A stretch of DNA of 59,225 bases, counting the filler. It is 5 parts of 5 records of this genome, joined end to end, with 100 filler letters (N's around TTAATTAATTAA, not from the genome) between each part and the next. Parts side by side here need not be neighbours in the genome. Positions count along the whole stretch, not along the records: positions 8,603 to 35,555 come from DRR723986_7016; 4 more parts are not named here. One strand, 5' to 3'. Position numbers and translations under genes: made by a program. This document shows, piece by piece, positions 2,398 through 23,954 of the stretch. How positions within the stretch are numbered: position 1 is the first letter of the stretch; every line of letters starts with the position of its first letter. The notes below the pieces were generated by a model. It searched no databases. It was not told the DNA's origin and was given only the letters and a program-made list of their open reading frames with translations.

Positions 2398-2865
2398 TTA
2401 TTTGGTAAAATCAGCCACCACAGCACCGCACAGGCGGGGCAAATCTTGGGGGCAAAGGGCAAAAACATGGTTTGGCGTGCCCGCCGCGGCCCACACTTGG
2501 CCAAATGCCATCAATCGCGGGTCGGCCCAGGCCCGTATGGGCGATAGATGCCCCACCGGGCTGACCCCGCCAATGGCAAAGCCCGTTTGCGCCCGGATCA
2601 GCGCGGCATCGGCCTTGCCCAGGGGTTGGCCCGCCAGCGCGCTGGCCTTTTGCGGGCATACCTGGTTTCCGCCTGCGGTCAGAAACAGCACCGCATCGCC
2701 GCTGGTTTCAGCGCGAAAGATGATGGATTTCACAATTTGATCCAGGCCACAGCCCACCGCATCGGCGGCCTCTTGGGCGGTGCGCGCGCCTGCGGTTTCA
2801 ACAATCTGGGCCGCCAGCCCCGCCTCATCCAGCGCGCGCCGCACCCGTGCCATGCTTTTGCTCAT
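2398..2865 (-). CDS. YbaK/EbsC family aminoacyl-tRNA deacylase
   Basis: QIVKSIIF and TGFAIGGVSPVGH motifs; start MSKSMARV. Confidence 0.9.
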   Translation of the reverse strand: MSKSMARVRRALDEAGLAAQIVETAGARTAQEAADAVGCGLDQIVKSIIFRAETSGDAVLFLTAGGNQVCPQKASALAGQPLGKADAALIRAQTGFAIGGVSPVGHLSPIRAWADPRLMAFGQVWAAAGTPNHVFALCPQDLPRLCGAVVADFTK

Positions 2866-2963
2866 ACTGCTGTGCCCCCCTTTGCTGGCGCCAAACTGCA
2901 CCACAAAACCGGCCGGTGCAATCGTGGCATATTGCATCCGCCGCCCCCCCGTGGCCTAGATAG

Positions 2964-5759
2964 ATGATGGATTTTGAAACCCGCATCACCCGTATGCCTG
3001 TGCCCTATGATGGCGATCGTGGCCGCGAAGCGCGCGCCGCTGTGGCGCCGCTGCAAGGCGATCTGGCACGCCTGATCGAAGGGGCCTGTGGGTGCAGCCC
3101 CTATCTGAAAACCTTGGTCGAGAAAGAGGCCGCCTGGCTGCCTGGCGCGCTGGCCGCGCCCGAGGCCGCACTTGCCACGGTTCTGGCCGGTATCGCCGAC
3201 GCGCCCCCCGATCAGCTGCCCGCGCATTTGCGCCAGGCCAAACGGCGCGTGGCGCTTTTGGCGGGCCTGGCCGATTTGGCGGGGGTCTGGCCGTTGATGC
3301 AGGTTACAGGGGCGCTGACGCAGCTGGCCGATGCGGCAGCGCATGCGGCGTTGCGCGCCTGTGTGGGGGCCGAAATTCGCCGGGGTAAATTGCCCGGCGC
3401 CCAGCCAGGCGACGCCGAAACCGCCGGCGGCATGGTGGCGCTGGCCATGGGGAAAATGGGCGCCTTCGAGCTGAATTACAGCTCGGATATCGATTTGATT
3501 TGCCTGTTTGATGAAACCCGTTTCGCCCCGGGTGACTGGATCGAGGCGCGCGCCGCCTTTGTGCGCGCCACCCGCAAGATGGCGGCCATGCTGTCGGATA
3601 TGACGGCCGAGGGCTATGTGTTTCGCACCGATCTGCGGCTGCGCCCCGATCCGGCCGTCACCCCTGTGTGCATGGCGATGGGGGCTGCGGAAACCTATTA
3701 CGAAAGCCTGGGCCGCACATGGGAGCGTGCAGCCTATATAAAGGCGCGCCCCGCGGCGGGCGATCTGGCCGCAGGTGCCGGGTTTTTGAAAACCCTCACA
3801 CCTTTCGTCTGGCGTAAACATCTGGATTTTGCCGCCATCCAAGATGCCCACGATATGCGCCTGCGCATCCGCGAGCACAAAGGCTTGGGCGGGCCCATCA
3901 CCTTGCCGCGCCACAATATGAAACTGGGGCGCGGGGGGATCCGCGAGATCGAATTTTTCACCCAAACCCGGCAATTGATCGCCGGCGGGCGCGATGCAGA
4001 TTTGCGGGTGCGGGGCACGCTGGATGGGCTGGCGGTTCTGGCCGCCAAGGGCTGGGTGCCGCAGGGCGCCGCAGATATATTGGCGCGCCATTACGTGGCC
4101 CACCGCGAGGTGGAACACCGCCTGCAAATGATCAACGACGCCCAAACCCACGATTTGCCCGGCAATGACGAGGGGTTTCAGCGCCTGGCCTGTTTCATGG
4201 GCGTGGCCCGCGATGAGCTGCTGCGCGATCTGACCGCGCGCTTGACCGAGGTGCATGATCTGACCGAAAGCTTTTTCGCGCCAGATGCCGCCAGCGCCGC
4301 GCCGCCCACTGCGGCGCACAGTTTCAACCCCGAAATTGTGGCCCGTTGGGGCAGCTACCCGGCGCTGCGCTCGGCCCGCGCGGTTGAAATTTTCGAGCGC
4401 CTCAAGCCCGAATTGCTGCACCGTTTGGGCCATACAGCCCGCCCCGACGAGGCGCTTTTGGCGCTCGATGGGTTCTTGGCGGGCTTGCCGGCGGGCGTGC
4501 AGCTGTTTTCGCTTTTTGATGCCAATCCGCAGTTGATCGATCTTTTGGTCGATATCGTTGGCAGCTCGCCCGCCCTGGCCAGCTATCTGTCGCGCAACGC
4601 ATCGGTGTTTGATGCGGTGATCGGGGGGGCGTTTTTTGATGCATGGCCCGGCTGTGCGGCTTTGGCGGCAGAACTGGCGCAGCGCCTGCAGGCCGAGCCA
4701 GATTACGAGGCGCGGCTGGATATGGCGCGGCGCTGGGCCAAGGAATGGCATTTCCGCATTGGTGTGCACCATCTGCGCGGGCTGATCAACGCCACCGAGG
4801 CCGGGGCCCAATATGCCGATTTGGCGCAGGCCTGTCTGCAGGCTCTATACCCGCAGGTGGTGGCGCAATTTGCCACCAAACACGGCCCCCCGCCGGGGCG
4901 TGGGGCTGCGGTGCTTGGGATGGGCTCGCTTGGGGCGGGGCGGTTGGGGGCCACGTCGGATCTGGATTTGATCGTGATCTATGACGCCGCCGGGGTTGAC
5001 ACCAGCACCGGGCGCCGGCCGCTGGCCACCCGCGCCTATTATGCACGCTTGACGCAGGCCATGGTGACGGCCGTCACCGCGCTGACCTCGCAGGGGCGGC
5101 TATACGAGGTGGATATGCGGCTGCGCCCCTCGGGCACGCAGGGGCCTGTGGCCACGTCCTTGGCCAGTTTCGAAAGCTACCAGATGTCTGATGCCTGGCT
5201 GTGGGAACATCTGGCGCTGACGCGGGCGCGGGCGGTTGCGGGGGATGCGGGCCTTTGTGCCGATGTCGAGGCGGTGCGCGCCCGCGTCTTGGGGCGCAGC
5301 TATACGCCCGCGCAGGTGCTGCCCGAGGTGGCGCATATGCGCGCCCGCATCGCCGCGGCCAAAACGCCTGATGGCCCGTGGGATGCCAAATTGGGCGCGG
5401 GGCGGTTGCAAGATATCGAATTGCTGGCCCAGGCTGCCAGTTTGGTGGCGCGCTATCCGGGGCGCGATTTGGGCGCGGCCCTGCAGGCGGGGGCGGCGGT
5501 GGGGCTGTTGACCGCCACCGAGGCGCAAACCCTGATCGCGACTTATGATTTATGCTGGCAAATCCAGTCGGTTTCCAAACTTTTGTCGGACAAGGCGCTT
5601 GATTTGTCGGCCTTGGGCGAGGGGGGGGCTGCCATGCTGCTACGCGAGACTGGCGCCAGATCGATCGATGATTTGGCGCAACAGCTGGCGCGCGCCAGTG
5701 TGCATGCAGCACAGGTTATCAACCGGGTTGTGGGGCAACCCACAGAGGGGGCAGAATGA
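2964..5759 (+). CDS. glnE: Glutamine synthetase adenylyltransferase/adenylyl-removing enzyme
   Basis: Two nucleotidyltransferase motifs (MGKMGAFELNYSSDIDL, MGSLGAGRLGATSDLDL), DLRLRP/DMRLRP, WERAA. Confidence 0.95.
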   Translation: MMDFETRITRMPVPYDGDRGREARAAVAPLQGDLARLIEGACGCSPYLKTLVEKEAAWLPGALAAPEAALATVLAGIADAPPDQLPAHLRQAKRRVALLAGLADLAGVWPLMQVTGALTQLADAAAHAALRACVGAEIRRGKLPGAQPGDAETAGGMVALAMGKMGAFELNYSSDIDLICLFDETRFAPGDWIEARAAFVRATRKMAAMLSDMTAEGYVFRTDLRLRPDPAVTPVCMAMGAAETYYESLGRTWERAAYIKARPAAGDLAAGAGFLKTLTPFVWRKHLDFAAIQDAHDMRLRIREHKGLGGPITLPRHNMKLGRGGIREIEFFTQTRQLIAGGRDADLRVRGTLDGLAVLAAKGWVPQGAADILARHYVAHREVEHRLQMINDAQTHDLPGNDEGFQRLACFMGVARDELLRDLTARLTEVHDLTESFFAPDAASAAPPTAAHSFNPEIVARWGSYPALRSARAVEIFERLKPELLHRLGHTARPDEALLALDGFLAGLPAGVQLFSLFDANPQLIDLLVDIVGSSPALASYLSRNASVFDAVIGGAFFDAWPGCAALAAELAQRLQAEPDYEARLDMARRWAKEWHFRIGVHHLRGLINATEAGAQYADLAQACLQALYPQVVAQFATKHGPPPGRGAAVLGMGSLGAGRLGATSDLDLIVIYDAAGVDTSTGRRPLATRAYYARLTQAMVTAVTALTSQGRLYEVDMRLRPSGTQGPVATSLASFESYQMSDAWLWEHLALTRARAVAGDAGLCADVEAVRARVLGRSYTPAQVLPEVAHMRARIAAAKTPDGPWDAKLGAGRLQDIELLAQAASLVARYPGRDLGAALQAGAAVGLLTATEAQTLIATYDLCWQIQSVSKLLSDKALDLSALGEGGAAMLLRETGARSIDDLAQQLARASVHAAQVINRVVGQPTEGAE

Positions 5760-7164: not shown

Positions 7165-8268
7165 ATGTTTTCGATCAGCCCCTCGGCCCGCCTGCGGCCC
7201 TCGCCCTTTTTCGATGCCACCGTGGCCGAAGGCGTGACAGCCTTTACCACCTATAACCACATGTTGATGCCCACCTCTTATGGCAACCTTGAGGCCGAAT
7301 ATTGGCGCCTGATCAACGGGGTCAGCCAATGGGATGTGTCGGTTGAGCGGCAGGTGCAGCTGAAAGGCCCCGATGCCGCGGTTCTGGCCCAAATACTGGC
7401 GCCACGTGATTTATCGCGCCAAAAGGTGGGGCAGGGCAAATATGTGCCGCTGTGCAACCATCAGGGCGTGCTGATCAACGACCCGATCTGCCTGAAACTG
7501 GCCGATGATCTGTTTTGGCTGTCGATTGCCGATAGCAACATCTGGTTTTGGGCGCAGGCCATCGCCGCCGAGCGGGGCCTGAATGTCGAGGTCAGCGAGC
7601 CTGATGTCTCGCCCATGGCCATTCAGGGCCCCAAGGCCGAAGATGTGGTGGCCCATGTCTGCGGCGATTTCGTGCGCGATCTGAAATATTTCTGGTTTGC
7701 CGAAACCAGCATTGGCGATATTCCGGTTGTGGTGCAGCGCTCGGGCTGGTCCAAACAGGGCGGGTTTGAAATTTACCTGCGCGATGGCAGCCGCGGCACC
7801 GAATTGTGGAACATTTTCAAAGAGGCCGGCCAGCCATGGGGCATTGGCCCGGGCAACCCCAACTGGTGCGAGCGTATCGAATCTGGCCTGGTCTCGTATG
7901 GTGGCGATAGCGACACCACCACCAACCCGTTCGAGGTGCGCATGGGCAAATATGTGGATCTGGACGTGCCCGATGACACGATCGGCATTCAGGCCTTGCG
8001 CCGCATCAAGGCCGAGGGGCCAAAGCGCCATACGCTGGGGCTGGTGCTGCAGGGCGATGCGCCCATCGCACCTGGCTTTAGCTGGAACCCGATTTTGCAA
8101 GATGGCCGTAAAATGGGCGATCTGACGAATGTGGTGTTTTCGTTCCGCCTGAAAAAGAATATTGGCTTTGCGCTGGTATCGGCAGATCTGGCCATTGGTG
8201 ATGCGGTGCAGTGCCAGATTGGCGGCGCCACGCATCAGGGCCATCTGACCGATCTGCCCTTTTTGTAA
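7165..8268 (+). CDS. GcvT-family THF-dependent aminomethyltransferase/demethylase, DmdA-like paralogue
   Basis: YNHMLMP, WDVSVERQV, NDP, EPDVSP-A-QGP, RSGWSKQGGFEIY and ERIESGL-SYG are shared with DMSP demethylase DmdA as I recall it, but the N-terminal region differs from canonical DmdA. Confidence 0.8.
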   Translation: MFSISPSARLRPSPFFDATVAEGVTAFTTYNHMLMPTSYGNLEAEYWRLINGVSQWDVSVERQVQLKGPDAAVLAQILAPRDLSRQKVGQGKYVPLCNHQGVLINDPICLKLADDLFWLSIADSNIWFWAQAIAAERGLNVEVSEPDVSPMAIQGPKAEDVVAHVCGDFVRDLKYFWFAETSIGDIPVVVQRSGWSKQGGFEIYLRDGSRGTELWNIFKEAGQPWGIGPGNPNWCERIESGLVSYGGDSDTTTNPFEVRMGKYVDLDVPDDTIGIQALRRIKAEGPKRHTLGLVLQGDAPIAPGFSWNPILQDGRKMGDLTNVVFSFRLKKNIGFALVSADLAIGDAVQCQIGGATHQGHLTDLPFL

Positions 8269-8502: not shown

Positions 8503-8602
8503 NNNNNNNNNNNNNNNNNNNNNNNNNNNNNNNNNNNNNNNNNNNNTTAATTAATTAANNNNNNNNNNNNNNNNNNNNNNNNNNNNNNNNNNNNNNNNNN
8601 NN
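8503..8602. other. Contig-joining spacer
   Basis: N run containing the TTAATTAATTAA all-frame stop linker; composition and gene content change across it. Confidence 0.99.
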
Positions 8603-8608
8603 AAAACG

Positions 8609-8697
8609 TGGGAACCATGCGTTGCAACGAAGCCGCCGAGCTAGTCAACTTTACTAGACAATCCAACACGGCGACTCGCTAAACGCGAGCGTTCTGC
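8609..8697 (+). repeat. attC-like site 1
   Basis: TGGGAAC-CATGCGTTGCAACGAAGCCGCCG...CGGCGACTCGCTAAACGCGAGC-GTTCTGC, 89-bp imperfect palindrome. Confidence 0.8.
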
Positions 8698-8714
8698 TGT
8701 GGATAGGAGTAGAC

Positions 8715-9212
8715 ATGCAAGGCTTCGTGTTTCATGGATTTCTTCTGTTCTCAATTGTCGTGACGCAATCGAGCTGGAGGATCACTGGTGCTCAAGTTAC
8801 ACCTTGGGCGCATTGAAAGAAGAGCGTTCCATGCTGCTACTGGAAGATCATCCAGCTGGATGGCAAAACTAAGTTTGCCTACATGATTCGGATTACAGAG
8901 ACAGAGCTGATCGATCAGAAGCCTAGCTGGCTGAGACTGGAACGAGGCAGACTTTTTGTTAATCACGAAGAGATAAAGCCCAAATCAAATCAACTTCAAA
9001 TCGTTTTTGCTGAAAACGATGGGAAACCGCATCTAATCGTTGCAGACGAAAAGATGGCCAAGACATTACCCAAGCTGAAAGGTGCGGCGTTTCCTAAGCG
9101 CAGCGAATTGTCGACGACAACTGAGCAGATTTGCAGAGATTTCGATCAATTTTGGTCTACGCTAAAATCAACGGTAGAGCACAGGACACAGGACGGGAAG
9201 GCCAACAAGTGA
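8715..9212 (+). pseudogene. Cassette 1 gene, hypothetical, with an in-frame TGA at 8814
   Basis: GGAG-preceded ATG at 8715 with a hydrophobic N-terminus is in the same frame as ORF 8883-9212; a single stop separates the two parts. Confidence 0.55.
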
Positions 9213-9216
9213 GTCG

Positions 9217-9307
9217 GCAGTACCACGAGATGCACCCAAGGCGCGTTGGCAGGTCAACTTTGCTAAATTGAATCACTCTCGCGACTGCGTGATTCCAACC
9301 GTTCCCC
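9217..9307 (+). repeat. attC-like site 2 (degenerate)
   Basis: GCAGTAC-CACGAGATGCACCC...GCGTGATTCCAACC-GTTCCCC, 91 bp; the R'' AAC reads TAC. Confidence 0.65.
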
Positions 9308-9355
9308 GACTGTATGAGCCTCCAGCGAATCTATGCGAAAGCGTAATCATTCACG

Positions 9356-9847
9356 ATGCTGAATTGGACTAAGAGACGCCAGACAGAATTTGTCATCTTG
9401 CCCGGAAGGGGAGTTGAGGGTTGCGAAATTGGTTTTGACAAGACCACTGCACGCGATACATTTGGCAAACCGCAAAAGGAAGGCACGAAATACCTTCATT
9501 TTTACAGGACTGGGTTGGACGTATACACGGACTTTTTCACAAAAACGATTCTGTCCTTCCACTTCTTCTATCTATCCGATGAGCATCGACGGTTCTCGGG
9601 CGCTACTGCCGATGGAATTGGCGCTGATGCTACCATCGCCGACGTTCTCGAAGCTCATGGGGAACCCGATGACAGCGGGCATTCTGGCGACAACATAATC
9701 GAAACGCTGATGTATTGGCGACTTGGGATGGTCTATGATTTTAGAGACAAAAAACTCGCTCACATCACCGTTGTTGAACCGAAGCGCGACGAAAAATCCG
9801 GCGGGAAACTATCCGCTGCACCCGAGGCGCCGAGCCAAGCGTTTTGA
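9356..9847 (+). CDS. Cassette 2 hypothetical protein
   Basis: 163-aa ORF filling the cassette, with its stop inside attC-like site 3. Confidence 0.75.
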   Translation: MLNWTKRRQTEFVILPGRGVEGCEIGFDKTTARDTFGKPQKEGTKYLHFYRTGLDVYTDFFTKTILSFHFFYLSDEHRRFSGATADGIGADATIADVLEAHGEPDDSGHSGDNIIETLMYWRLGMVYDFRDKKLAHITVVEPKRDEKSGGKLSAAPEAPSQAF

Positions 9848-9893
9848 CAATGGAAGATCTCTCGCGGCGACCGGCTGATCGGTATCGTTCGTC
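9803..9893 (+). repeat. attC-like site 3
   Basis: GGGAAAC-TATCCGCTGCACCCGAGGCGCCG...CGGCGACCGGCTGATCGGTATC-GTTCGTC, 91 bp. Confidence 0.75.
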
Positions 9894-9930
9894 GCTCATC
9901 GAACCGATAAGCTCAAACCAATAGATGCAT

Positions 9931-10470
9931 ATGGCTAAGATACTTACCTCAATTATTGCGATGGCATTGTTTGCAGTTTCGTCATGGCACACAGATGACG
10001 CGTTGCTTCATACCCAAGGTAGCACCAAAACATTTACGAATGGACAATCCTACCCTGAGGGCGAGTTACGCTTCGTTGTTCCTGAAATATTCGTGAAGCA
10101 AGCTTGCGAGGTGCTAGAGACTCCTAGTTCACTATCTGATTTCGAGATCGTTTTCGTCGGCCACGAAGCAAGTTCTGGATATATTACCCTGGATGGGGCA
10201 TTCTCGGCCTCAAAAGAGCATGACTTCGATTTTGCTTTACGTGATGTCGAGTATTCCCGCGGTGAGAAATCGACGCTCGCAACCGGCAACGTTGTTTTTG
10301 GTGACACGAAGAAATTCACTCATCGGTTCGTGGTATCCGTACAGAAGATCGGCGAATCTGGCGCCAAAGAGAACCGTCATGACCGGCTGGAAGGCCATAT
10401 CTGCTGGCCCGCACTGCTGGATGCACGCGACGAACAAAGCGATAAACGCAGAGTCGCCGAGCCAAACTAG
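9931..10470 (+). CDS. Cassette 3 hypothetical exported protein
   Basis: MAKILTSIIAMALFAVSS signal-like N-terminus; stop inside attC-like site 4. Confidence 0.7.
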   Translation: MAKILTSIIAMALFAVSSWHTDDALLHTQGSTKTFTNGQSYPEGELRFVVPEIFVKQACEVLETPSSLSDFEIVFVGHEASSGYITLDGAFSASKEHDFDFALRDVEYSRGEKSTLATGNVVFGDTKKFTHRFVVSVQKIGESGAKENRHDRLEGHICWPALLDARDEQSDKRRVAEPN

Positions 10471-10519
10471 TTTTACATCATTATCATCTACGGCGACCTG
10501 GTTATCGCTGACGTTCGTC
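10429..10519 (+). repeat. attC-like site 4
   Basis: GACGAAC-AAAGCGATAAACGCAGAGTCGCCG...CGGCGACCTGGTTATCGCTGAC-GTTCGTC, 91 bp; inner AGCGATAA/TTATCGCT and GTCGCCG/CGGCGAC pairs with unpaired bases. Confidence 0.85.
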
Positions 10520-10571
10520 GCCCTTGCACATCTAGTTGCCTGAAGTGTTCGAACCACAGAAAGGAAAAGCC

Positions 10572-10805
10572 ATGAAGAGAACAATCAAACGGCAAGCTAT
10601 TACGGCCGCATTGATCTGGGAACTCTGTTGGTTACCCATTGAAATTGCCTTTGTGGGTCTCGGTCTCTGGTTGTCGCTCAAACTCCAATGGATGACAATC
10701 GGCGGCCTTTGGCTGCTGGCATTCCTCGCCGTCGATTTCATGGTCAGATACCAGCACTATTCGAAAGTCGCGCCAACAATTCACGGCCCGCAGCTTGAGC
10801 GGTAG
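10572..10805 (+). CDS. Cassette 4 small membrane protein (possibly truncated)
   Basis: AAGGA before the ATG, two hydrophobic segments; stops about 110 bp before the next attC-like site. Confidence 0.6.
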   Translation: MKRTIKRQAITAALIWELCWLPIEIAFVGLGLWLSLKLQWMTIGGLWLLAFLAVDFMVRYQHYSKVAPTIHGPQLER

Positions 10806-10917
10806 CTGCGAAGAACCAGCGGATACGAGCGTAGTATCGGACGTGCGCCTTGGACAAATGGTTTTTGCGGCAGGGCTCCAATCCCAATCTGTTCGAAGCA
10901 CACACGAACAGACTGGC

Positions 10918-11006
10918 GACGAACCAAGCGTTGCAACCAAGCCGCCGCGCCTGTCCGGCGTGCTAAACAATCAACCCCGGCGGCTCGCTGAACGCCAGCG
11001 TTCCGC
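10918..11006 (+). repeat. attC-like site 5
   Basis: GACGAAC-CAAGCGTTGCAACCAAGCCGCCG...CGGCGGCTCGCTGAACGCCAGC-GTTCCGC, 89 bp, similar to site 1. Confidence 0.85.
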
Positions 11007-11041
11007 CATTCAAGAGTCTCCGCAACTGGAGAATCACGGAC

Positions 11042-11365
11042 TTGCAAATCAACGCGAACCAGATAGAGCTTCGAACGCTTTTCGTAATCGTTTTATTCGC
11101 GGCATTGGCGACAATTGCAATTCAGTTCATCGCTTCACACGGTCCAGAAATGTTCATTCTTGCGATTATGTTCAGTGCTGCGCTAGCCCTTGCAGGCTTT
11201 GGCCTCATTGGGTTTGCACTACTGATGGCATTTTCAATTCTGCTGACACCAAACGACGGCGAACAACGAACTAACCTTTATCGATGTGGCAATCTGGCAG
11301 TGATTGGCTCAATGGCGGTACTTCCGCTCCTGATGTGGATCTTGATTCTTCCGCACACAAGGTAA
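11042..11365 (+). CDS. Cassette 5 small membrane protein
   Basis: TTG start after GGAG, three hydrophobic segments, QIELRTLF-type N-terminus often seen in planctomycete small proteins. Confidence 0.65.
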   Translation: MQINANQIELRTLFVIVLFAALATIAIQFIASHGPEMFILAIMFSAALALAGFGLIGFALLMAFSILLTPNDGEQRTNLYRCGNLAVIGSMAVLPLLMWILILPHTR

Positions 11366-11465
11366 TGTTGGCCAATAAGACAGGCACTGGCCGGAAATTT
11401 GCGACGGTTTTGTCAATGCTACAATGTCACCTAGAGGTCTCGGGGCTCGTAGAAATGCGTAACGG

Positions 11466-11535
11466 GCGAAACCAAGCGTTGCAACCGAGTTCTCGATGCC
11501 ATCCTGAATTATATCGACATCAATCCCTCGAACCG
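11466..11535 (+). repeat. attC-like site 6, right arm missing
   Basis: GCGAAAC-CAAGCGTTGCAACCGAGTTCTCGA...CTCGAACC; the left arm matches sites 1 and 5, but no ...AACGC..CGTT right arm follows. Confidence 0.6.
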
Positions 11536-11859
11536 CCTCTTCCAAGTTGTGTTCTACGAAACGGGGTGCGCGGGGCTGCGACCGAAAGTGGACTAAGCGA
11601 CTATTCGAGGTGTGAATGCCAGTGCGCGTGCTGGGCCTACGGCATCCTCTCAGTATTCTTTGCAAGCTCTTGTTCGGCGTAGCTTTCAAGCAGGCCAGAT
11701 TCTTTAGGACGGCGTGGTCTTCATATTCTGGACACTGCGATGCCGTCGTGTCGCTGTCGCATCATATCTGTTGCCCGGGTGCAACGCAATGAGCGTTCAC
11801 CTGCGCCGCATACATCGCTTTGCTCGGTCGACCTGGCAGATCCTCTCTAGTGGAGGGAC

Positions 11860-12030
11860 TCAGCGAAGGAGTCCCAATAGAATCCAGATGGCGGCGATTG
11901 CTGGCACGGCAACTGCAATCACTATGCGCATCGAGAGCCACGGGAAAGCTTGGCGCTTGGCTTTTGGAGCCTTCGCAAAAGCAATCTTGGCGTCGTTATC
12001 ATCTAATCGCTCGATTTCGTTCAAATTCAT
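11860..12030 (-). pseudogene. Short or decayed membrane-anchored ORF (MNLNEIERL...IVIAVAVPAIAAIWILLGLLR)
   Basis: GGAG upstream of the ATG, one transmembrane-like segment followed by an early stop. Confidence 0.3.
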
Positions 12031-12326
12031 GCTGATGCAACTCCCTAAATTTGTTGACTACTTAGTTGGCGTTAACGGGCGGAAGTTTGGGCGCGGAAAG
12101 GGTGTTTTTCGGGCGACTTAAGACTGGATCGACCGGGGGCTAGTATCCCAGGCCTGTTCGTTTGATCGGCCCATCCAATGCTTTCGTGAACGCAGAGCGA
12201 TCTTCTTGGCGATCCAGTCCTTGTATGCAGGCTCGAAAATTCGTGGTTAAGGAGCGACTCAAGTCGGCACTCGCTTCCCACTAGCCAGTTGACTCCGAAC
12301 CCTATCCTGAAGGCGGGGCGTTTCGG

Positions 12327-12824
12327 TTATAGGCCCGTTGCTAAATCAATTGCGCGAATCACCAGGTCCTCGTCAGGAAGGTCGCGAATCACAAACGGGT
12401 TGTGTGGATCTGATGGCTTGTAAATTGCAATCAATGGCACCGAAGAAACACCGAGTGAATCCAGCAGTTCTTGCATTGTGCCGTGAGATTCATTCGTCCA
12501 CTCGGCTTCAAGCAAGACCACGCCGCGATCTCGAATCTTTCGAGTAACCTCGCCAGACACCCAACGCATCGGGTTGGAGGTGTTGATTGACCAGTCGCCA
12601 TAAGCGACGACCATAACGGCCTTGCCGTGGTTCAGCTTTGAATCGAGCAGCTCCCGAGTATAGGTTTGGTAGTAAGGCGGGAGCCGATTCAGGTACTCTT
12701 TGATTCCCAGTGAGATTAACGCGGACGCAGCAGTCAGAATCAGCATCCACGCAAAGCTAAAACGGAAGCCTCTCGATGGAGTTGAAGTTTCGCTTTTCCG
12801 TTGCGTTGATGTAGTCGACGGCAT
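12327..12824 (-). CDS. Membrane-anchored thioredoxin-fold (DsbD gamma-like) protein lacking CxxC
   Basis: GKAVMVVAYGDWSINT, LLEAEWT and LG..SVPLIAIY resemble DsbD-gamma/Thioredoxin_7; the protein has no Cys. Confidence 0.65.
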   Translation of the reverse strand: MPSTTSTQRKSETSTPSRGFRFSFAWMLILTAASALISLGIKEYLNRLPPYYQTYTRELLDSKLNHGKAVMVVAYGDWSINTSNPMRWVSGEVTRKIRDRGVVLLEAEWTNESHGTMQELLDSLGVSSVPLIAIYKPSDPHNPFVIRDLPDEDLVIRAIDLATGL

Positions 12825-13435: not shown

Positions 13436-16126
13436 ATGCATATGAACTATAGGTATGACGCCGAGTTGACGCGGCAGCTTCGGTGTGTGGGGCTGGCTCT
13501 GCTGATCGCAAGCGGAGTTTTCTTGTGCCCCGCCGCTGTGGCACAGGAGAAAGCCACGGCAAAAGCGAAAGCCGCTGAAGCTGATCCGAAGGCTCCTCCC
13601 CAGCCACCCGCTCAAAGCGACGCTGAGAAGGATGGAGAGGAAAAGGGCGACGGCGAAGCTGATGCGCCTCCCACAATGGCAATTGTCGGTGCTGACATAC
13701 ACACTCAGACCGGGCGTGGCGTGATCGCCGGTGGAACGATTCTGATTAGCAACGACAAGATCGTCGCGGTCGGAGACGGTGATCTTCAAATTCCCGATGG
13801 CGTTGAGACCGTCGATGGGGCGGGCTTGAACATCACGCCTGGCTTAATTGATTCACACAGTCGTCTTTGGTTGACGAGCTCCGCCGCCTCAGCAACGGCC
13901 AGCGATGGTTCCTTGAAAGTGCTCGATGGGGTTGACCCATTTGATGAGCAATGGAATGAAGTCATTCGCCACGGAGTGACGAGTGTCTATGTGCAGCCTG
14001 GCTCACGCGGAACGCTCGGAGGGTTCGGGGCCGTTCTATCAGTTGTACCGGGAGAGCTTGGTCCGGAGGTTCACTGCGAACTGGCTTCTCTACAGGCATC
14101 GTTGGGAATCGGTGCGACGACGAACCTTACACGGAATCAGCAGTACGAGCGCACGAAGAAAGCTCTCCAAGCGGCCGTTGACTATCAGAAGAAGGTCGAC
14201 GCCTATGCTGCCTATATGAAGAAGCAGGAGGCGGAGAAGAAGAAGGCCGCGGCTAAATCGAATTCGACGAAGAAGCCTGCCTCCAAGTCATCAACCAAGT
14301 CAGACGCGAAAACTGAAGCAACTGCAAAGAAGCCAACGACGGACCCAAGAGCCAAGGCGTCTTCGAAGCCGAGTTCATCAAGCTCGACTGCAAAGAGTGC
14401 ATCGGAAAAGAAGGAAAAGGCTCCTGAGAAGCCCGACGTTGATAAAAAGAAGGCCAGGCTTGCGAAAGTTGTGGCTGGTAAAATTCCGCTTCGCCTTGAG
14501 ATCAATTCGTCCGACGATGCTTATTACGCGCAGAAACTGCTAAAGGATTTCAAGGATCTGCAAGTAATTTTCACGGGGCTAGGTGATCTACGATCTGCCA
14601 AGGCAGACGTCGTCGATCTGAACGCACCGATGATTCTGGGGCCTTGGGTGGAAACAGAATCTAGCTACCGATCGCAGCCCGATAGTTGTGACCAGTGGGC
14701 CGAGTTGCTCGATGACTACGAAGGTGCCATTGTCGTGGCATCCAACGGAACCAACTCGCGAAGTTCTCGATTGCTCCGGGCACACGCTGCTCAAGCGGTT
14801 GCTTCGGGGCTCGATCACGCAACGGCCCTTGCTTCAATTACTTCTACGGCCGCTCGAGTGCTTGGCGTGGGCGACAAGATAGGAAGCGTCAAGGCTGGGA
14901 CACGTGCAGACCTGGTTGCCTTCGCTGGCGATCCTCTCGACAGCTCAGCACCAATCGTGTGGGTGATCTCTGGTGGCAAGATCGTCCATCAGGATTCCAA
15001 AGAATCGCACTCCCATGGAGCATACTCTGTTGCGGCTGAGACGGATGTCTCGATGCCACGTGCGGGTAAGATCGCAATCAAGACGAACAATTTTCTCTTG
15101 CCCAGTGGAAAAGTCGCATCACGTGTTGTTGTCATCAATCGCAAACGCGGCACGATGACAGCAACCAAACCTGGCGAATTCAAGGCTGGCAAGGGAACCA
15201 AGGTAGTCGACGTCGGGGACGCTTGGATAACGCCGGGACTATTCTCAGCACACTCAACACTTGGACTAAACCAGCTTGTCGACCCTCGCCTGTCTGATTC
15301 CAGTTATGTGGTCGCGGGCGACGCGATATCCCCCGGATTCACTCGAGAAGATGACTTGGTTGAGACGGGGTTGTTGAAAGTACTTCTTTCCCCAAGCGAC
15401 CGAAACACGCTTTCCGGTTCGAGCAGTTTGGTGCGACTGGGAGCAAAAGAGCAAGTTGCTGAGTCAATCGCAGCTCTCAAGTTCTCGATGACCGCGTCCG
15501 CTCGCACCACCGACCGCTTCCCATCGAGCCTGGCCGGTCAAGCGCAACTGATCAAAGAATCCCTGGACGGCAAACTGCTGGACACGCGACTGTACATTCC
15601 CGAAGCTGTCCAAGAGCAACTGGCCCAACAACGGCTCCAGCGGCTGAAGAGTGCCTCGGACGGTAAGACGCTTACGATCATCTCGGTTTCCAGTGATGCA
15701 GAGATCCGTGCGGCCCTCGACCTGGTCGAGCAACGCAAACTGAAGGCTGCATTGGTTGGACCCGCTCAACTCGCTCCGTTTGCGGATCGCATTGCTGAGC
15801 TAGGTGTTTCCGTTATTGCACGCCCAATCACATCGACCGACTACGATTGGTACACAGCGGATCTAGCTGCTGCATCCGAGGCGGGTGTTGAGATCACTTT
15901 CTCTGGTGAGCGTGCTCAGCAACTGCGGCTCTCGGCAGCACTTGCCGTTCAGAGCGGTATGCCAACGCAGAGGGCTCTCGCAAGTCTTTGCTATGGACCG
16001 GCATCGCTGACTGTAGAAACGAACAACGCTGACCTCGTCATCTGGACCGGATCACCCCTGAACTTGTCATCCAAAATCCTAAGCATCATGGTGGACGGAA
16101 ATGTTGTCACTTCGGATGCGAACTGA
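13436..16126 (+). CDS. Exported double-domain amidohydrolase-fold protein (both metal sites degenerate)
   Basis: Signal-like N-terminus; ITPGLIDSHSR and ITPGLFSAHST; GS-K-G--ADLV and ADLVIWTGSPL. Confidence 0.9.
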   Translation: MHMNYRYDAELTRQLRCVGLALLIASGVFLCPAAVAQEKATAKAKAAEADPKAPPQPPAQSDAEKDGEEKGDGEADAPPTMAIVGADIHTQTGRGVIAGGTILISNDKIVAVGDGDLQIPDGVETVDGAGLNITPGLIDSHSRLWLTSSAASATASDGSLKVLDGVDPFDEQWNEVIRHGVTSVYVQPGSRGTLGGFGAVLSVVPGELGPEVHCELASLQASLGIGATTNLTRNQQYERTKKALQAAVDYQKKVDAYAAYMKKQEAEKKKAAAKSNSTKKPASKSSTKSDAKTEATAKKPTTDPRAKASSKPSSSSSTAKSASEKKEKAPEKPDVDKKKARLAKVVAGKIPLRLEINSSDDAYYAQKLLKDFKDLQVIFTGLGDLRSAKADVVDLNAPMILGPWVETESSYRSQPDSCDQWAELLDDYEGAIVVASNGTNSRSSRLLRAHAAQAVASGLDHATALASITSTAARVLGVGDKIGSVKAGTRADLVAFAGDPLDSSAPIVWVISGGKIVHQDSKESHSHGAYSVAAETDVSMPRAGKIAIKTNNFLLPSGKVASRVVVINRKRGTMTATKPGEFKAGKGTKVVDVGDAWITPGLFSAHSTLGLNQLVDPRLSDSSYVVAGDAISPGFTREDDLVETGLLKVLLSPSDRNTLSGSSSLVRLGAKEQVAESIAALKFSMTASARTTDRFPSSLAGQAQLIKESLDGKLLDTRLYIPEAVQEQLAQQRLQRLKSASDGKTLTIISVSSDAEIRAALDLVEQRKLKAALVGPAQLAPFADRIAELGVSVIARPITSTDYDWYTADLAAASEAGVEITFSGERAQQLRLSAALAVQSGMPTQRALASLCYGPASLTVETNNADLVIWTGSPLNLSSKILSIMVDGNVVTSDAN

Positions 16127-16133
16127 GGGATCG

Positions 16134-17354
16134 ATGAGAACTGAGATTAGCTACATGAAATTGCAAACACTCGCGCTGCAACTCACCCTGGCATTTGTGA
16201 TGGTGCCCGTTACGTGGTGTGCCGCCGAAGACACTGTGCTCATCAGTGCGGAACACGTTTACACCATCGGCGGCGATGTTCTCTCGCCTGGACAGGTGCT
16301 GGTGCGAGACGGCAAAGTTCAGTCGGTCGCAAAGCAGATTGACGTCGATTCAGGTGTCGAGGAGCTGAAAGTGCACTCGCTCATGCCTGGTATTGTCAAC
16401 GCTTTCAGTCGAGCTGGAATTCGCGGAGGTGGGGCCGAACTGTCGCGTGAAGTAACACCGGATTTCAACACAGCAAGCACGATCGATTGGAGCGCCCGCG
16501 ACTTCGCCGAGGAGCTCGACCAAGGCGTCACAACCGTTCACATTCTGCCGGAAACGCAGAGCGTCTTCTCGGGCTTTTCGTTGGTTGCCAAGACTGCTGG
16601 CAAAGAAGAAAGCATGCTTCTCAGCCCCGAGCAATCGGTGGTCATAGCCGTAAGCAGCGACCCAACTTCTCGCAACCGCTCTCGTAGCCGTCCGGACAGC
16701 ATCTATGTTCGGCAGCCGACGAATCGCATGGGAGTTATCTGGATCATTCGCAGCACACTGCACCGAACGCAGCAGGGCGAGGTGTCTGACGCGCTCGACT
16801 CTACGACAACCGGCGTGCTCAAGGGCATGCTCGATGGCTCACGTGAAGTCGTCAGCGTCAGTCGTAAGGATTACGACATTCGCAGTGCGTTGGAATTGGG
16901 CGAGAATTTTGGATTTCAACCAGCGATTTACGGTGGCGACGAAGTCTACCGGATGATGGACGAATTCAAGGATTCCGGTGCACCGTTGGTCTACACGGCT
17001 CTGACGGTCAATGGTTCCGCGCGAAGCCTCCGGGGTGCCGAGGGTTCTGAGCTACGTTGGAACGTACCGGGTAAGCTGCAGTCAGCCGGTGTAACTTTTT
17101 GTCTCGCCGGAGAGAACGTTTTGGACCAAGCTCGCTTTGCAGTTCGATTTGGACTTTCCAAGAGCGAAGCCCTGTCAGCGATTACCCTGCGACCCGCACA
17201 AATACTGAAACTAGAAAACCAAGTCGGTTCAATTGCCGCTGGCAAGCAAGCTGACTTGGTCGCATTGAGTGGAGATCCGTTACAGCCAACCTCGACCATT
17301 TCCTGGACGATGGTGGGTGGGAAGATTTACGGCAACATCGAGAGCAACAAATGA
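16134..17354 (+). CDS. Exported amidohydrolase-fold protein (no metal ligands)
   Basis: MPGIVNAFSR, GVTTV, GSIAAGKQADLV; start 16134 or 16155. Confidence 0.88.
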   Translation: MRTEISYMKLQTLALQLTLAFVMVPVTWCAAEDTVLISAEHVYTIGGDVLSPGQVLVRDGKVQSVAKQIDVDSGVEELKVHSLMPGIVNAFSRAGIRGGGAELSREVTPDFNTASTIDWSARDFAEELDQGVTTVHILPETQSVFSGFSLVAKTAGKEESMLLSPEQSVVIAVSSDPTSRNRSRSRPDSIYVRQPTNRMGVIWIIRSTLHRTQQGEVSDALDSTTTGVLKGMLDGSREVVSVSRKDYDIRSALELGENFGFQPAIYGGDEVYRMMDEFKDSGAPLVYTALTVNGSARSLRGAEGSELRWNVPGKLQSAGVTFCLAGENVLDQARFAVRFGLSKSEALSAITLRPAQILKLENQVGSIAAGKQADLVALSGDPLQPTSTISWTMVGGKIYGNIESNK

Positions 17355-18733
17355 AGCACTATCACTCACCCAAGACACTGACTTTCTGGGGTGCCCTGTT
17401 TTGCGCAGTCGTTAGCGCGGCTGCACCGGTGATCGGTGCAGGGCCTCTCGCCATTCAAGGTGCGAAGATCATCACCGTGACTGGTGATGTCATTGAAAAT
17501 GGCACGGTGCTCGTACGTGACGGACGCATCGAAGCGGTTGGCACTGACGTGAAAGTCCCGGGAGAAGCCTTTGTTATCGATGGAACTGGCAAAGTTGTCA
17601 TGCCAGGGATTATCGACACGCATAATGCGGCCGGAATGAGTCAGGCGAATGAGCAAGCCTCCGTTGTTCCGTTCCTGTCGGTGGTTGATTCAATCGACCC
17701 AATTGCCGGCTACTTCGACGAATGTCGGCGCAATGGAATTACTACTGCATCGGTCGTGCCCGGTAACAGCACGTTGATCGGCGGCAAGGCGGCGATTGTG
17801 AAAACCGCTGGAGGCTACGTGAACGACATGCTTGTTCGTCGCGACTCCGCACTGAAGCTTTCGCTACGACCTACCGGCGGCAGTCGGATGAGTCAGCTTG
17901 CTCAGTTGCGCAGAGAGTTGGACGCCGCCAAGAAGGCTCTCAAAGAAGAAGCCGAAGCGGAAGAGAAGAAGTCCAAAGACGGCGAATCGGACAAGTCAGA
18001 AAAGAAGAGTGACGACAAGGACGAGAAATCTAAGGCCGACGAGTCAAAGGACAAAGATGCCCCTAAAGACGATGGGGACAAGGCTGCAGAACCGAAGAAG
18101 GAAGAGTCGAGCAAGGCAAAGGACGAAGGCCTTGAAGCGCTGAAGTTAGCTGTTAAGGGCGAGATGCCTGTCTACATCTACTGCGAAGTTGCGATGGATG
18201 TCGCTGCGGCAGAGAAGATCGTCAAAGATTACGGCCTGAACCCGATCTATGTTCTCGGACGTGAATGCTATCCAGCGGCCAAGCTCCTCGCCAAGCAAGA
18301 GCAGCCCGTCATCCTCGACCCAACGCTTGTCTACTGGAAGACGGACCCGCGAACACGGGAAGACGAGAAGATTGAATTGCCGAAGATCTATCACGATGCT
18401 GGCGTGCCGTTTGTGTTCCAGGTGAGTGATTCCAGTCGCCGCACGACGTTGGGAACGAGCTACTTCTGGTACCAGGCTGCAACTGCCGTGAAATACGGTA
18501 TCTCCGAAGCAGACGCCATGGCAGCGCTGACAATCGAGCCAGCCAAGCTGCTCGGTCTTGAAGACAGGATCGGAAGCATCGAAGTTGGCAAAGAGGCTGA
18601 CTTGGTCGTCCTGACCGGTGAACCGCTCGACATCACGACGTGGGTTGAAACCACAATCGTCGACGGTGAGGTCGTCTACAAACGCGATGATGATGAAAAG
18701 CTGAAGCGACTGCTTTCGCCGGAGGTTGAATAA
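17351..18733 (+). CDS. Exported amidohydrolase-fold protein with an acidic/basic insert (degenerate metal site)
   Basis: MPGIIDTHNA, GITTA, GSIEVGKEADLV; ATGA overlap with the previous gene. Confidence 0.9.
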   Translation: MKHYHSPKTLTFWGALFCAVVSAAAPVIGAGPLAIQGAKIITVTGDVIENGTVLVRDGRIEAVGTDVKVPGEAFVIDGTGKVVMPGIIDTHNAAGMSQANEQASVVPFLSVVDSIDPIAGYFDECRRNGITTASVVPGNSTLIGGKAAIVKTAGGYVNDMLVRRDSALKLSLRPTGGSRMSQLAQLRRELDAAKKALKEEAEAEEKKSKDGESDKSEKKSDDKDEKSKADESKDKDAPKDDGDKAAEPKKEESSKAKDEGLEALKLAVKGEMPVYIYCEVAMDVAAAEKIVKDYGLNPIYVLGRECYPAAKLLAKQEQPVILDPTLVYWKTDPRTREDEKIELPKIYHDAGVPFVFQVSDSSRRTTLGTSYFWYQAATAVKYGISEADAMAALTIEPAKLLGLEDRIGSIEVGKEADLVVLTGEPLDITTWVETTIVDGEVVYKRDDDEKLKRLLSPEVE

Positions 18734-18735
18734 GC

Positions 18736-21432: not shown

Positions 21433-22670
21433 TGAGAAAAGTCCTGTTACTCGCTTGCCTGACCTGCTTCCTGTCCTCAGCCACATTGTTGGCTGACGAA
21501 ACCGGCAAACCGAAGTATGCGATCCAGGTTGGAAAGATCATCACTTCGGCGGGCGAGCCGATTATTGGTGGCACGATCCTGGTTTCCGATGGCAAGATCG
21601 AAGCACTTGGCAAGTCGAGTGAAGTTGAGATCCCCGAGGGGTACGAAGTCGTAAAGCATCCCAACTGCTTTGCGATGCCCGGCCTGATCGATGCACACTC
21701 GCACGTCGGTGGCTCGGGTGACCTTAACGAGATGGTCTATCAGACGAATCCTGAGCTGCGCAACTGGGACCAGATCATCCCTCACAACGATGATCTGAAG
21801 GTTGCCATTGCAGGTGGCGTCACCACGATTGCGTATATCCCTGGAAGCGGAACGAATATGGGCGGCTGGGGAACGCTGATGAAGACCGGCCCCGGAAAAC
21901 TGTCGGACGTCATCATCAAGGCACCCGGCGTCCTAAAGATTGCTCAATCTGGAAATCCCGAGCGTCGCGATGGCGAAGTAGGATCCGGACGAATGGGAAT
22001 GAATTATGTCATCCGTCAACAACTGGAAGAAGGCCGCGTTTACGTAAGGCTTTGGGATGAATTCGAAGCTGGCCGCACTGATGTGAAGCCGAAGGTGAAT
22101 CTGCGGCTAGAGTACTTCAAGCCACTGTTTCGTCGCGAGATCCCTGTCGTTGTCCACACTCAGGCTTATCAGGTTGTCCAGTCGACACTCCGTATCCTGC
22201 ACGATGAGATGAACCTCAAGGTGGTCATCGACCATGGTACGTTCGACAGTTACAAGATCAGCGATGAGATCATCAAGCGTAACATTCCCGTGATGGCCGG
22301 CCCGAGAGGATTCCGCTACGAACCGGAAGACGGGCAAATCAAGGGTATCGTCGCGGAGTACGCTGACCGAGGCATAACGTGGCTAGGCGTCAACACGGAT
22401 GCTCCTGTTATTCCACAGGAAGAACTTGCTTTTCAGGCGACGATGGCGGTGCGATACGGCTGGAACGAAGAAGACGCGATTGCTGGCATGACCATAGAGG
22501 CGGCCCAGGCGCTGATGATTGACGACCGTGTTGGATCCCTCGAACCTGGAAAAGACGCTGATATCCTGATCACCACCGGCTCGATCGTGGATCCAAGAAA
22601 CTACGTCAAGCAAGTGTTCATTAATGGGCAAAGCGTTTACGACACATCCAAAGATCGGCGCAGATTCTAA
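21432..22670 (+). CDS. Exported metal-dependent amidohydrolase with an intact ligand set
   Basis: PGLIDAHSH, VVVHTQ, VIDHG, NTDAP; TGATG overlap with the previous gene; signal peptide MRKVLLLACL. Confidence 0.92.
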   Translation: MRKVLLLACLTCFLSSATLLADETGKPKYAIQVGKIITSAGEPIIGGTILVSDGKIEALGKSSEVEIPEGYEVVKHPNCFAMPGLIDAHSHVGGSGDLNEMVYQTNPELRNWDQIIPHNDDLKVAIAGGVTTIAYIPGSGTNMGGWGTLMKTGPGKLSDVIIKAPGVLKIAQSGNPERRDGEVGSGRMGMNYVIRQQLEEGRVYVRLWDEFEAGRTDVKPKVNLRLEYFKPLFRREIPVVVHTQAYQVVQSTLRILHDEMNLKVVIDHGTFDSYKISDEIIKRNIPVMAGPRGFRYEPEDGQIKGIVAEYADRGITWLGVNTDAPVIPQEELAFQATMAVRYGWNEEDAIAGMTIEAAQALMIDDRVGSLEPGKDADILITTGSIVDPRNYVKQVFINGQSVYDTSKDRRRF

Positions 22671-22724
22671 GTACCGAGTTAGCAATCGTTGCTACGAATC
22701 CGACAATTGAATAAGCAGCTTTCA

Positions 22725-23954
22725 ATGCGAATCCATATCAATGTACTCAGCCAGCGGCTTGGCAGCACACGAGCCTTACTTTGCGTGTTGTGCTTTGCCG
22801 TTCTGACACCGTCTGCAACCTTCGCAGCCAAGACAGTGGCGATAACGAATGCCACTATCGAGACCGCGACCAAGAAGGGAGTGATGCAGAATGCAACGAT
22901 TTTAGTCAAGGATGGCAAAATTGCGGCCATCGGTGAGGATGTCGACATTCCGGTCTCCGCGCAGGTGATCGACGCCTCGGGCAAATTCATCATGCCTGGT
23001 ATCGTTGATCCGTATTACGTGGTGACCATTGGCCGAAACGTTACGAGTACACCGGCACGGACCATCGTTTTCAACGGGCGCGTATTTACGATTGGTGGCG
23101 GCTCGAGAGTCATTGCAACGACATTCGCCAAAATTTCCGACGGCCTAGATCCCAAGAAAGTGAATTGGTCTCCCGCGCTACGTAGTGGCGTGACGACATT
23201 TCACGTTGTCACTGGCGGATACGCACAGTCACTCTATGCAACGCCTGATCCGGATAGCGGCATTCAGCTCAAGAGTTCCGGCGGACGCCTGCTTGTTGCG
23301 GTATCCAACGACACCAAGACGCTCGACGTGCTTCGGAAGAACTTAAAGCCAAGTACCTCAAGCCGCTCGTCGAGTTCACGGACCAGCTCAACAACTAGCT
23401 CTCCCACTGCGGCACTTTGGAAAGACGTCCGCGAGGGCAAGGTGCCCGTTTTCATTAACGTGAACAATGCGTCTGCGATACTTCATGTCGACGCGATCAT
23501 GAACGAGCATCCAAAGGCAAAGGTTGCGTTGATTGCCAGCGGGCCAAACGTCTTTGACACACTGAAAAGCCTCGACAACGATCAATACACAGTCATTCTT
23601 CCGCCGGCGATTGATCGAAAGCCCAACTCGGCCTATCGAATCAACGTCTCGAAGATGCTCGCGGAGAAAGATGTCAACTTTGCACTTTCACTTTCCCTCG
23701 CGCAGAGCGACTTCTCTTCTCAGCAGTCCACACCATTGTTCGGTACCGCCATGTTGATTCGCGCTGGGCTTGACCGTCAGGCTGCGGTTCGAGCACTGAC
23801 GATTGAACCGGCCAAGTTGATTGGCTTGGACAAGGAAGTTGGCTCGTTGGAAGTCGGCAAACAAGCAAACCTGCTAGTCTTCGGCGAAGATCCTTTCTCC
23901 ACGATGGCCAGTATCGAAGACATCTACGTTTCAGGAGAACGGGTCAATGATTAA
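22725..23954 (+). CDS. Exported amidohydrolase-fold protein (no metal ligands)
   Basis: MPGIVDPYY, GVTT, GSLEVGKQANL; start uncertain (22689 or 22725). Confidence 0.88.
   Translation: MRIHINVLSQRLGSTRALLCVLCFAVLTPSATFAAKTVAITNATIETATKKGVMQNATILVKDGKIAAIGEDVDIPVSAQVIDASGKFIMPGIVDPYYVVTIGRNVTSTPARTIVFNGRVFTIGGGSRVIATTFAKISDGLDPKKVNWSPALRSGVTTFHVVTGGYAQSLYATPDPDSGIQLKSSGGRLLVAVSNDTKTLDVLRKNLKPSTSSRSSSSRTSSTTSSPTAALWKDVREGKVPVFINVNNASAILHVDAIMNEHPKAKVALIASGPNVFDTLKSLDNDQYTVILPPAIDRKPNSAYRINVSKMLAEKDVNFALSLSLAQSDFSSQQSTPLFGTAMLIRAGLDRQAAVRALTIEPAKLIGLDKEVGSLEVGKQANLLVFGEDPFSTMASIEDIYVSGERVND

Follow-up and report, generated by a model that had tools for sequence, protein, structure and literature searches.

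Integrons occur in Planctomycetes according to passages of Cury et al. 2016 (PMC4889954), which also define clusters of attC sites lacking an integrase (CALIN), and sections of Ghaly et al. 2021 (PMC8352920) present a Planctomycetes-specific attC covariance model with a specificity of 98-100%. The subject of this report is a stretch of DNA of 59,225 bases (hereafter the window), in which positions 8603-11557 are read as part of a chromosomal integron from a Pirellulaceae planctomycete, namely the promoter-distal end of its cassette array, with a probability of about 0.93. Since planctomycete integrons and a taxon-specific attC model have already been published, the window array belongs to a known kind.

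Like the sedentary chromosomal integrons of Planctomycetes, the array comes from that phylum, has lineage-homogeneous attC sites arranged on one strand and carries mostly unknown genes, with intI divergently oriented in relatives. Unlike them, it is represented in the window by its distal end only, without intI. With CALIN, as characterized in parts of PMC4889954, it shares the presence of two or more attC sites, some five cassettes with functions unknown, and the lack of any intI from the sequence available, but it differs in that the absence of intI from the window may be an assembly artefact, the contig starting at the first attC. The sites resemble those of mobile integrons and the Vibrio repeats (VCRs) in having an AAC/GTT R box and an L box with an unpaired spacer in between, a pair of bulged bases N6 apart on one arm, a variable loop and a length of ∼90 nt. 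In contrast to the T-N6-G arrangement of mobile-integron attC sites and VCRs, the second bulged base of the window family is a C on the bottom strand. Portions of Larouche and Roy 2011 (PMC3053210) indicate that T-N6-G is preferred and that IntI1 excises T-N6-C with the same efficiency and IntI2*179E and SonIntIA with a higher one; because T-N6-C works with these integrases, the window attC is a variant within the known range.

Six attC Sites Delimit Five Cassettes

The window consists of five contigs joined by N spacers (8503-8602, 35556-35655, 43192-43291 and 51491-51590, each composed of 44 N, TTAATTAATTAA and 44 N), and contigs that are neighbours here may be non-adjacent in the genome. 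The contig of interest occupies 8603-35555. Within it, six co-oriented attC sites (87-92 nt) spanning 8609-11557 delimit five cassettes (487-626 nt), each with one main open reading frame (ORF) on the + strand, in agreement with an earlier note on this DNA that had described one small co-oriented ORF per cassette. GC content is 0.48-0.50 in the array versus 0.55-0.57 in the flank.

The sites were scored with two covariance models. R1 was built from alignment A2, which holds 13 sites (the six from the window plus seven full sites from motif loci of relatives), and thus includes the window's own sites. For this reason R2 was built from other genomes only, using 33 sites from 8 loci of other Pirellulaceae genomes and no window sequence. 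The sites, designated w1 to w6, are as follows.

8609-8697, + strand: attC w1, with R'' AAC at 8613-8615 and R' GTT at 8691-8693; R1 84.7 bits; R2 65.6 bits, E 1.4e-17; closes a cassette whose body is off the contig start at 8603
9217-9307, + strand: attC w2, with TAC at 9221-9223 and GTT at 9301-9303; R1 61.3 bits; R2 38.3 bits, E 3.4e-09
9803-9893, + strand: attC w3, with AAC at 9807-9809 and GTT at 9887-9889; R1 75.3 bits; R2 66.7 bits
10429-10519, + strand: attC w4, with AAC at 10433-10435 and GTT at 10513-10515; the best-formed hairpin; R2 74.5 bits, E 2.6e-20
10918-11006, + strand: attC w5, with AAC at 10922-10924 and GTT at 11000-11002; R1 86.4 bits; R2 65.7 bits
11466-11557, + strand: attC w6, terminal and of a second subtype; R1 54.7 bits; R2 24.6 bits, E 5.6e-05

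With filters off, R1 matched only these six sites in the window (54.7-86.4 bits), the next + strand match scoring 11 bits. The independent model R2, also run with filters off, recovered the same six with E-values from 2.6e-20 to 5.6e-05, and no further match was found on the + strand of the 59,225 bases at E ≤ 1. The check by covariance model that the earlier note had proposed thus returned, with our own models, exactly six + strand sites in 59 kb.

The AAC-to-GTT distances of w1-w5 (75, 77, 77, 77 and 75 nt) are those given in that note for five palindromes, but the left triplet of w2 is TAC. The inverse core triplet AAC is present in five of the six sites and the core triplet GTT in all six, and the AAC/GTT pairs are invariant or nearly so in both alignments (13 and 33 sites). 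Alignment further shows that the six sites are homologous beyond being palindromes, having in common the core of the 5' arm, an inner stem rich in GC and the CGTTC with which the 3' arm ends. What had been taken for a sixth half-site is a full-length attC with a decayed 3' arm, w6, whose subtype also occurs in complete form at two loci in relatives (L007 and L009).

Conserved Secondary Structure of the attC Family

A 21-nt core pattern occurs three times in the window versus 0.02 expected. The core motif matches 18 loci in the species-representative genome collection, 13 of which are Pirellulaceae, Pirellula, Planctomycetia or Stieleria records; the loci outside those 13 are coding or chance matches. 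The structure of A2, derived with RNAalifold and a hand-written structure, comprises three helices (R box, L box and inner stem) and a variable loop. Pairing holds in 89.6% of the cells of this structure, and both sides have changed in 9 of 20 pairs, a level reached by none of 500 shuffles, while slid controls on the same alignment gave 28-50% paired. The corresponding values for the 33-site alignment, which was fitted to the model and so favours the structure, are 95.3% of cells paired and 15 of 20 pairs covarying. Pairing amounts to 89-98% in 16 stem pairs, of which 9 in A2 and 14 in A6 show compensatory changes.

The R and L helices are parted by an unpaired spacer of 3 nt on one arm versus 4 nt on the other. 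The 5' arm contains two single-base bulges, at A2 columns 16 and 24 with six nt between them, so that the bottom strand reads T-N6-C, an assignment based on a consensus structure rather than a solved complex. The second bulged base is a top-strand G, i.e. C on the bottom strand, in 12 of the 13 sites.

When folded as single-stranded DNA, only w4 and w5 were significantly better than shuffles. The bottom-strand fold of w4 has an energy of -22 to -26 kcal/mol (z -4.2 to -6.5), and that of w5 a z of -2.7 to -5.5. The minimum-energy bottom-strand fold of w3 is the canonical hairpin, at a z of just -0.2 to -0.9. Folding in the circle form, in which each R' is replaced by the cassette's own start, improved w5, w6 and w3, with w2, w3 and w6 staying non-significant.

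A mechanical inverted-repeat finder missed the attC arms, which are too imperfect for it. Searches with Rfam gave nothing at gathering score in three loci of relatives, and none of its families matched in the window; a single sub-threshold hit to CRISPR-DR65 (25.4 bits versus 43, E 0.6), in the palindromic 5' arm of w6, was taken as chance.

Adjacent Sites Carry a Recombination Fingerprint

The 7 nt after the GTT of each upstream site were compared with the 7 nt before the AAC of the next site, using 68 sites in six arrays (the window and loci L001, L005, L027, L003 and L004 of relatives). Over the 60 adjacent pairs, two pairs more than 1600 nt apart being left out, upstream R' and next R'' are complementary at 5.82 of 7 positions. 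By contrast, the two ends of the same site agree at 2.71 of 7 (n = 68) and random pairs at 2.70 of 7. The window's own adjacent pairs score 5, 5, 6, 7 and 4 of 7 positions, and R'' of w5 pairs at 10 of 10 positions with R' of w4. The junction matches of 6/7, 7/8, 9/9, 10/10 and 7/8 listed in the earlier note are correct, and the fingerprint holds over the six arrays. At one junction in L001 (12080/11350), GAT...ATC replaces GTT...AAC at both partner positions, complementarity being kept despite the change of the crossover triplet.

Such junction chimerism is as expected from circular cassettes inserted and excised at G|TT, and not from ordinary repeats or terminators. The mechanism is established integron biology, which we infer for the window array. 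On this reading, six attC sites of a lineage-specific family delimit five promoterless cassettes, each with one small + strand gene. The bottom strand of each attC would form an imperfect hairpin, its R box and its L box separated by an unpaired spacer, with the two bulged bases (T-N6-C) in the L box and with a variable loop; IntI would bind this hairpin and cut between the top-strand G and TT positions. Recombination between two attC sites would then excise cassettes as circles, with re-insertion at attI beside intI. Because of this circular excision and re-insertion, each attC in an array is a chimera in which the final six R' bases come from the cassette that follows. Integration of circular cassettes at G/TT, as put forward in the earlier note, thus draws support from the R and L boxes, spacer, bulges, covariation and chimerism, and from intI genes in relatives.

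Were the palindromes ordinary intergenic repeats of the repetitive extragenic palindrome or bacterial interspersed mosaic element type (REP/BIME-like), or intrinsic terminators between small genes, they would have no connection with integrons. Imperfect palindromes at gene ends would suit that explanation, and four of the six are thermodynamically unexceptional. However, a complementarity of 5.8/7 versus 2.7/7 at junctions is not expected of REPs or terminators, the two bulged bases lie at the canonical N6 spacing, no sites occur elsewhere in the 59 kb and no T-run follows the hairpins. The same family also forms one-strand arrays adjoining, and divergent from, integrases that are positive for TIGR02249. 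We consider this explanation very improbable.

Arrays of the Same Family Adjoin Integron Integrases in Relatives

The NCBIfam integron integrase model TIGR02249 scored above its curated cut-off in three of five related genomes and in none of 14 control genomes. In relatives, R1 revealed large one-strand arrays, including 19 sites in L001 and 20 in L005, both from the related genome G001. On contig 8 of G001, an intact intI lies at 14248-15198 on the + strand (437.5 bits versus a cut-off of 265), and 13 strong attC sites and one weaker one, all on the - strand, lie between 13013 and the contig start. No attC sites were found on the far side of this intI, and the arrangement is the classical divergent geometry. 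At L005 (G001 contig 3) the 20 sites run away from an intI pseudogene with in-frame stops. The 19-site array of L001 has no intI in 20 kb around it, the nearest partial match on that contig being ∼170 kb off.

The pseudogene that heads the L005 array lies at ∼15124-15914 (707083-707873 of the G001 contig) and its in-frame stops are TGA. Open intI frames in relatives (L019 1135-2778 on G001 contig 8; L020; L021) span 501-548 codons from stop to stop versus 315 positions in the family model. In the L019 frame, ∼120 residues follow the catalytic domain and may constitute a C-terminal extension.

As the cassettes are on the + strand, any intI would be to the left of the array, past the contig start, and the 27 kb to the right of the six attC sites contain none. 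The IntI that would move the window cassettes, or would have moved them in the past, would be encoded further to the left or at another place in the genome.

Evidence against the Integron Reading and the Question of a Detached Array

Several observations weigh against reading the locus as an integron array. No intI, attI or Pc is visible, and the array is truncated at the contig start; when five IntI frames of relatives were used as tblastn queries, the window gave no match, and Pfam searches of 24 proteins from the contig of interest gave no integrase. The earlier note had likewise seen no intI and an array running off the contig, the contig starting 6 nt before w1. Sites w1, w2, w3 and w6 fold no better than shuffles, either as they stand in the array or in circle form; the bottom-strand folding proposed in the note thus gave significant hairpins for w4 and w5 only. 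Departures from the family consensus, namely TAC for AAC in w2 and loss of the L' box in w6, also count against it. For three of the five main ORFs, homologues are absent or nearly so, which leaves ORF shape as the sole basis for calling them coding. Finally, there is no direct sign of excision, contigs being unable to show circles or rare junctions, and the order of cassettes 2, 3 and 4 was kept in one sequencing run.

That run, X1, is one of four runs from four studies in which 0.07-0.27 of sampled words of the window were present, as Logan contigs at 90-99% identity. Contigs of X1 bridge cassette 2, w3 and cassette 3 (9448-9969) as well as cassette 3, w4, cassette 4 and w5 (10265-10956), which indicates that order is kept there. 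Summed contig depth in X1 is 160.8 over 8603-8816 versus ∼0.2-8 elsewhere, these depths not being copy numbers, and the peak fits a highly repeated attC type that breaks assembly. Two joints, 8641>10969 and 9884>11594, were considered as excisions and rejected; their sides are short (28 and 21 nt) with extra letters between, and they are best read as other attC copies. Gaps in cover and loose ends at attC borders were given no weight.

As a sub-case of the integron reading, the array could be a strict CALIN, that is, an attC cluster detached from any integrase by rearrangement or by intI decay, and either moved in trans or fossil. The lack of intI in the window is in line with this, as are the two degraded sites among six and the insertion sequence (IS) footprint at the terminus (see below); arrays in G001 occur beside intact intI, beside pseudo-intI and, at L001, without nearby intI, and CALIN are described as common in parts of PMC4889954. 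Against detachment, w3-w5 look intact, and only 6 nt separate the contig start from an attC whose type is highly repeated and at which X1 depth reaches 160.8. A start and a depth of this kind are what a break of the assembly within a longer array looks like, and a continuation of the array to the left is thus most likely. We entertain detachment tentatively, at appreciably less than even chances.

Within the integron array itself, the sites appear to differ in quality. In w2, R'' is TAC rather than AAC and several stem pairs are broken in the R2 alignment, and on these features the site is weakened. In site w6, R'', L'' and the inner stem have been preserved and the L' box has been destroyed; because the L' box is replaced, four of seven L-box pairs fail in the R2 alignment and the position of R' is ambiguous. 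The site is of full length, the AAC-to-GTT distance being 74 or 78 nt according to the choice of GTT (11547 or 11551), and is probably no longer recombinogenic. Sites w3-w5 would still be active, w2 weakened and w6 dead.

A Segment Read as an IS1111-like Relic beyond the Terminal Site

A short segment beyond w6 is shared with the array ends of relatives.

11588-11619, + strand: 32-nt relic of an IS1111/IS110-family element, derived from its 3' non-coding region, in the same orientation relative to the cassettes as in related genomes

The relic begins 31 nt past w6 and is 87-91% identical to a segment that follows the last attC in L001, L005 and L003. Its 23-nt core occurs once in the window versus 0.01 expected, and all nine other occurrences among the loci examined (two of them duplicates) sit 150-276 nt inside the end of an IS. 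In G001 the segment belongs to a multi-copy element (17 matches), a full copy of which has a frame of 465 codons, encoding the domains DEDD_Tnp_IS110 and Transposase_20, and ∼640 nt of non-coding sequence after it. An attC-model match is present at the element's end in six of six copy loci examined in G001, two of which overlap L001 and L005. Four aligned copies start just before the GTT of an attC, placing insertion at one end, R'.

Element loci include L049 585-2618 (G001 contig 32), L045-L048, L050 and L003 1-310, in at least two Pirellulaceae genomes, and some copies are truncated to ∼1.2 kb. In the L005 array, an IS copy lies on the attC at 7194-7283, the next attC is at 5113, and another IS copy is found just past the locus. 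Beyond the IS that caps the L001 array, 2632-5612 on the - strand encodes a Mu-type transposase (rve and Mu-transpos_C_2, 747 aa) and a ParB/KorB-HTH protein (441 aa), which suggests another mobile element beside the array end. A group II intron had been a candidate for the element at the array ends of relatives and was ruled out by the Rfam and Pfam results.

According to passages of PMC11187229, the non-coding region downstream of tnp in IS1111 elements encodes a seekRNA, and ISKpn4 and ISPst6 target one end of attC sites. The G001 element is like this IS1111-attC group (ISKpn4, ISPst6, ISPa21 and relatives) in its DEDD transposase, long downstream non-coding region and attC insertion at the R' end; unlike the group, it resides in a different host phylum, and the window keeps 32 nt only. 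Degenerate footprints of such elements have reportedly been seen at the ends of Pseudomonas arrays.

The association between element and site could be turned around, the repeats being target or landing sites, or derivatives of the relatives' IS1111-like element resembling miniature inverted-repeat transposable elements, rather than integrase substrates. An IS end does abut an attC-model match at each of the six G001 copy loci, and the window has its relic. Yet only a minority of sites have the IS (2 of the 39 that L001 and L005 contain between them), IS sequence is absent from the repeats, and the window contains no IS110-type transposase (best tblastn E 0.58) and hence no IS1111-attC element itself. 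Moreover, IS1111 members that target attC are known parasites of integron sites, as parts of PMC11187229 describe, so the association supports the attC reading instead of competing with it. We consider this IS-based reading of the repeats very improbable.

For the integron array, the chances are about even that an IS1111-like element targeting attC once sat in its terminal site and left the 32-nt piece as its footprint, and the decay of the 3' arm of w6 is possibly linked to this footprint. By eye, the bases after the w6 GTT resemble the IS end at 7 of 9 positions, a likeness too weak to claim. It appears unlikely, if worth stating, that Pirellulaceae arrays have been colonized and capped by an IS1111-like lineage of their own, its 3' non-coding RNA guided to R' of T-N6-C attC sites, and that the 32-nt piece is a retained functional segment (for example a guide-RNA or promoter fragment) still influencing the array end. 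If true, the arms race between integrons and IS1111-attC elements known from Pseudomonas and clinical integrons would extend to a distant phylum, and natural seekRNA-target pairs would be available for study.

Cassette Genes

The five cassettes, taken from the TT of one site to the G of the next, are listed below with their main ORFs.

8692-9301 (610 nt, TT of w1 to G of w2), + strand: cassette 1, main ORF 8883-9212, 109 aa
9302-9887 (586 nt), + strand: cassette 2, ORF 9356-9847, 163 aa, the last codons entering attC w3
9888-10513 (626 nt), + strand: cassette 3, ORF 9925-10470, 181 aa, with a hydrophobic N-terminus and its stop inside attC w4
10514-11000 (487 nt), + strand: cassette 4, ORF 10572-10805, 77 aa, hydrophobic, with AAGGA upstream of the ATG
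11001-11551 (∼551 nt), + strand: cassette 5, the last, hydrophobic ORF 11042-11365, of 107 aa if started at TTG and 71 aa if started at the ATG at 11150

No Pfam family was found for any cassette ORF, and the description of the cargo as unknowns holds, the proteins being unknown or near-orphan. The 109-aa ORF of cassette 1 has no homologue in a set of 5.8 billion proteins; the same cassette has a possible 33-aa ORF at 8715-8816 with GGAG upstream. For cassette 3, a search of 1.84 billion representatives gave two weak matches (best E 4.6e-09 at 29% identity), another protein search gave no match and an Atlas search no usable match.

The cassette 2 protein has four homologues at 55-75% identity (5.8 billion clusters), and its domain is present in 9 of 401 sampled genomes of the family. 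It forms the C-terminal half of 327-aa proteins encoded in attC-bounded cassettes at L037 and L044 and lies near an attC in L035. Its presence inside attC-bounded cassettes in two other genomes, with other neighbours, indicates that this gene family travels as a cassette. The remaining window cassettes had no match in 308 kb of loci. A metagenome scan with the cassette 2 family matched 112 pattern stretches and confirmed none. An AlphaFold model of the protein, made from a five-sequence alignment (pLDDT 73.6), predicts a tandem helix-plus-sheet repeat. A structure search with it gave a weak likeness to 9j9w_A (TM 0.50, 11% identity), to DUF4309 YjgB and to a putative beta-lactamase-inhibitor (BLIP-like) protein; this predicted likeness may serve as a lead only and assigns no function.

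Genes to the Right of the Array

Between the array end and the genes further right lie a 56-aa ORF with a hydrophobic tail (11863-12030, - strand) and a 165-aa protein (12330-12824, - strand) with a sub-threshold Thioredoxin_7 match (20.4 bits versus a cut-off of 27). Contig cover of 11600-12320 differs between runs X1 and X2. At 13436-25530 on the + strand, seven consecutive genes of the amidohydrolase family (Amidohydro_1/3) are followed by a gene for a PhoD-like phosphatase and two sulfatase genes. On contig 6 of G001, a similar cluster of several amidohydrolase genes includes a counterpart of the first gene at 47% identity, the closest match to this flanking amidohydrolase among 151 sampled genomes of the family. 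That cluster has no attC sites, and no attC hits were found in the homologous amidohydrolase loci L029 and L030.

Significance

General knowledge of integrons is left unchanged by the window array. What it provides is a clean, well-delimited chromosomal integron array of the Pirellulaceae together with a lineage-specific attC model. Within a single array, the sites show graded quality, from intact through weakened to dead, and one of its five cassette genes, all unknown, is found again as a cassette in other genomes. The model and sites may be of use in choosing substrates for IntI assays and in annotating metagenome-assembled genomes of planctomycetes, where such arrays break assemblies and stay unannotated.

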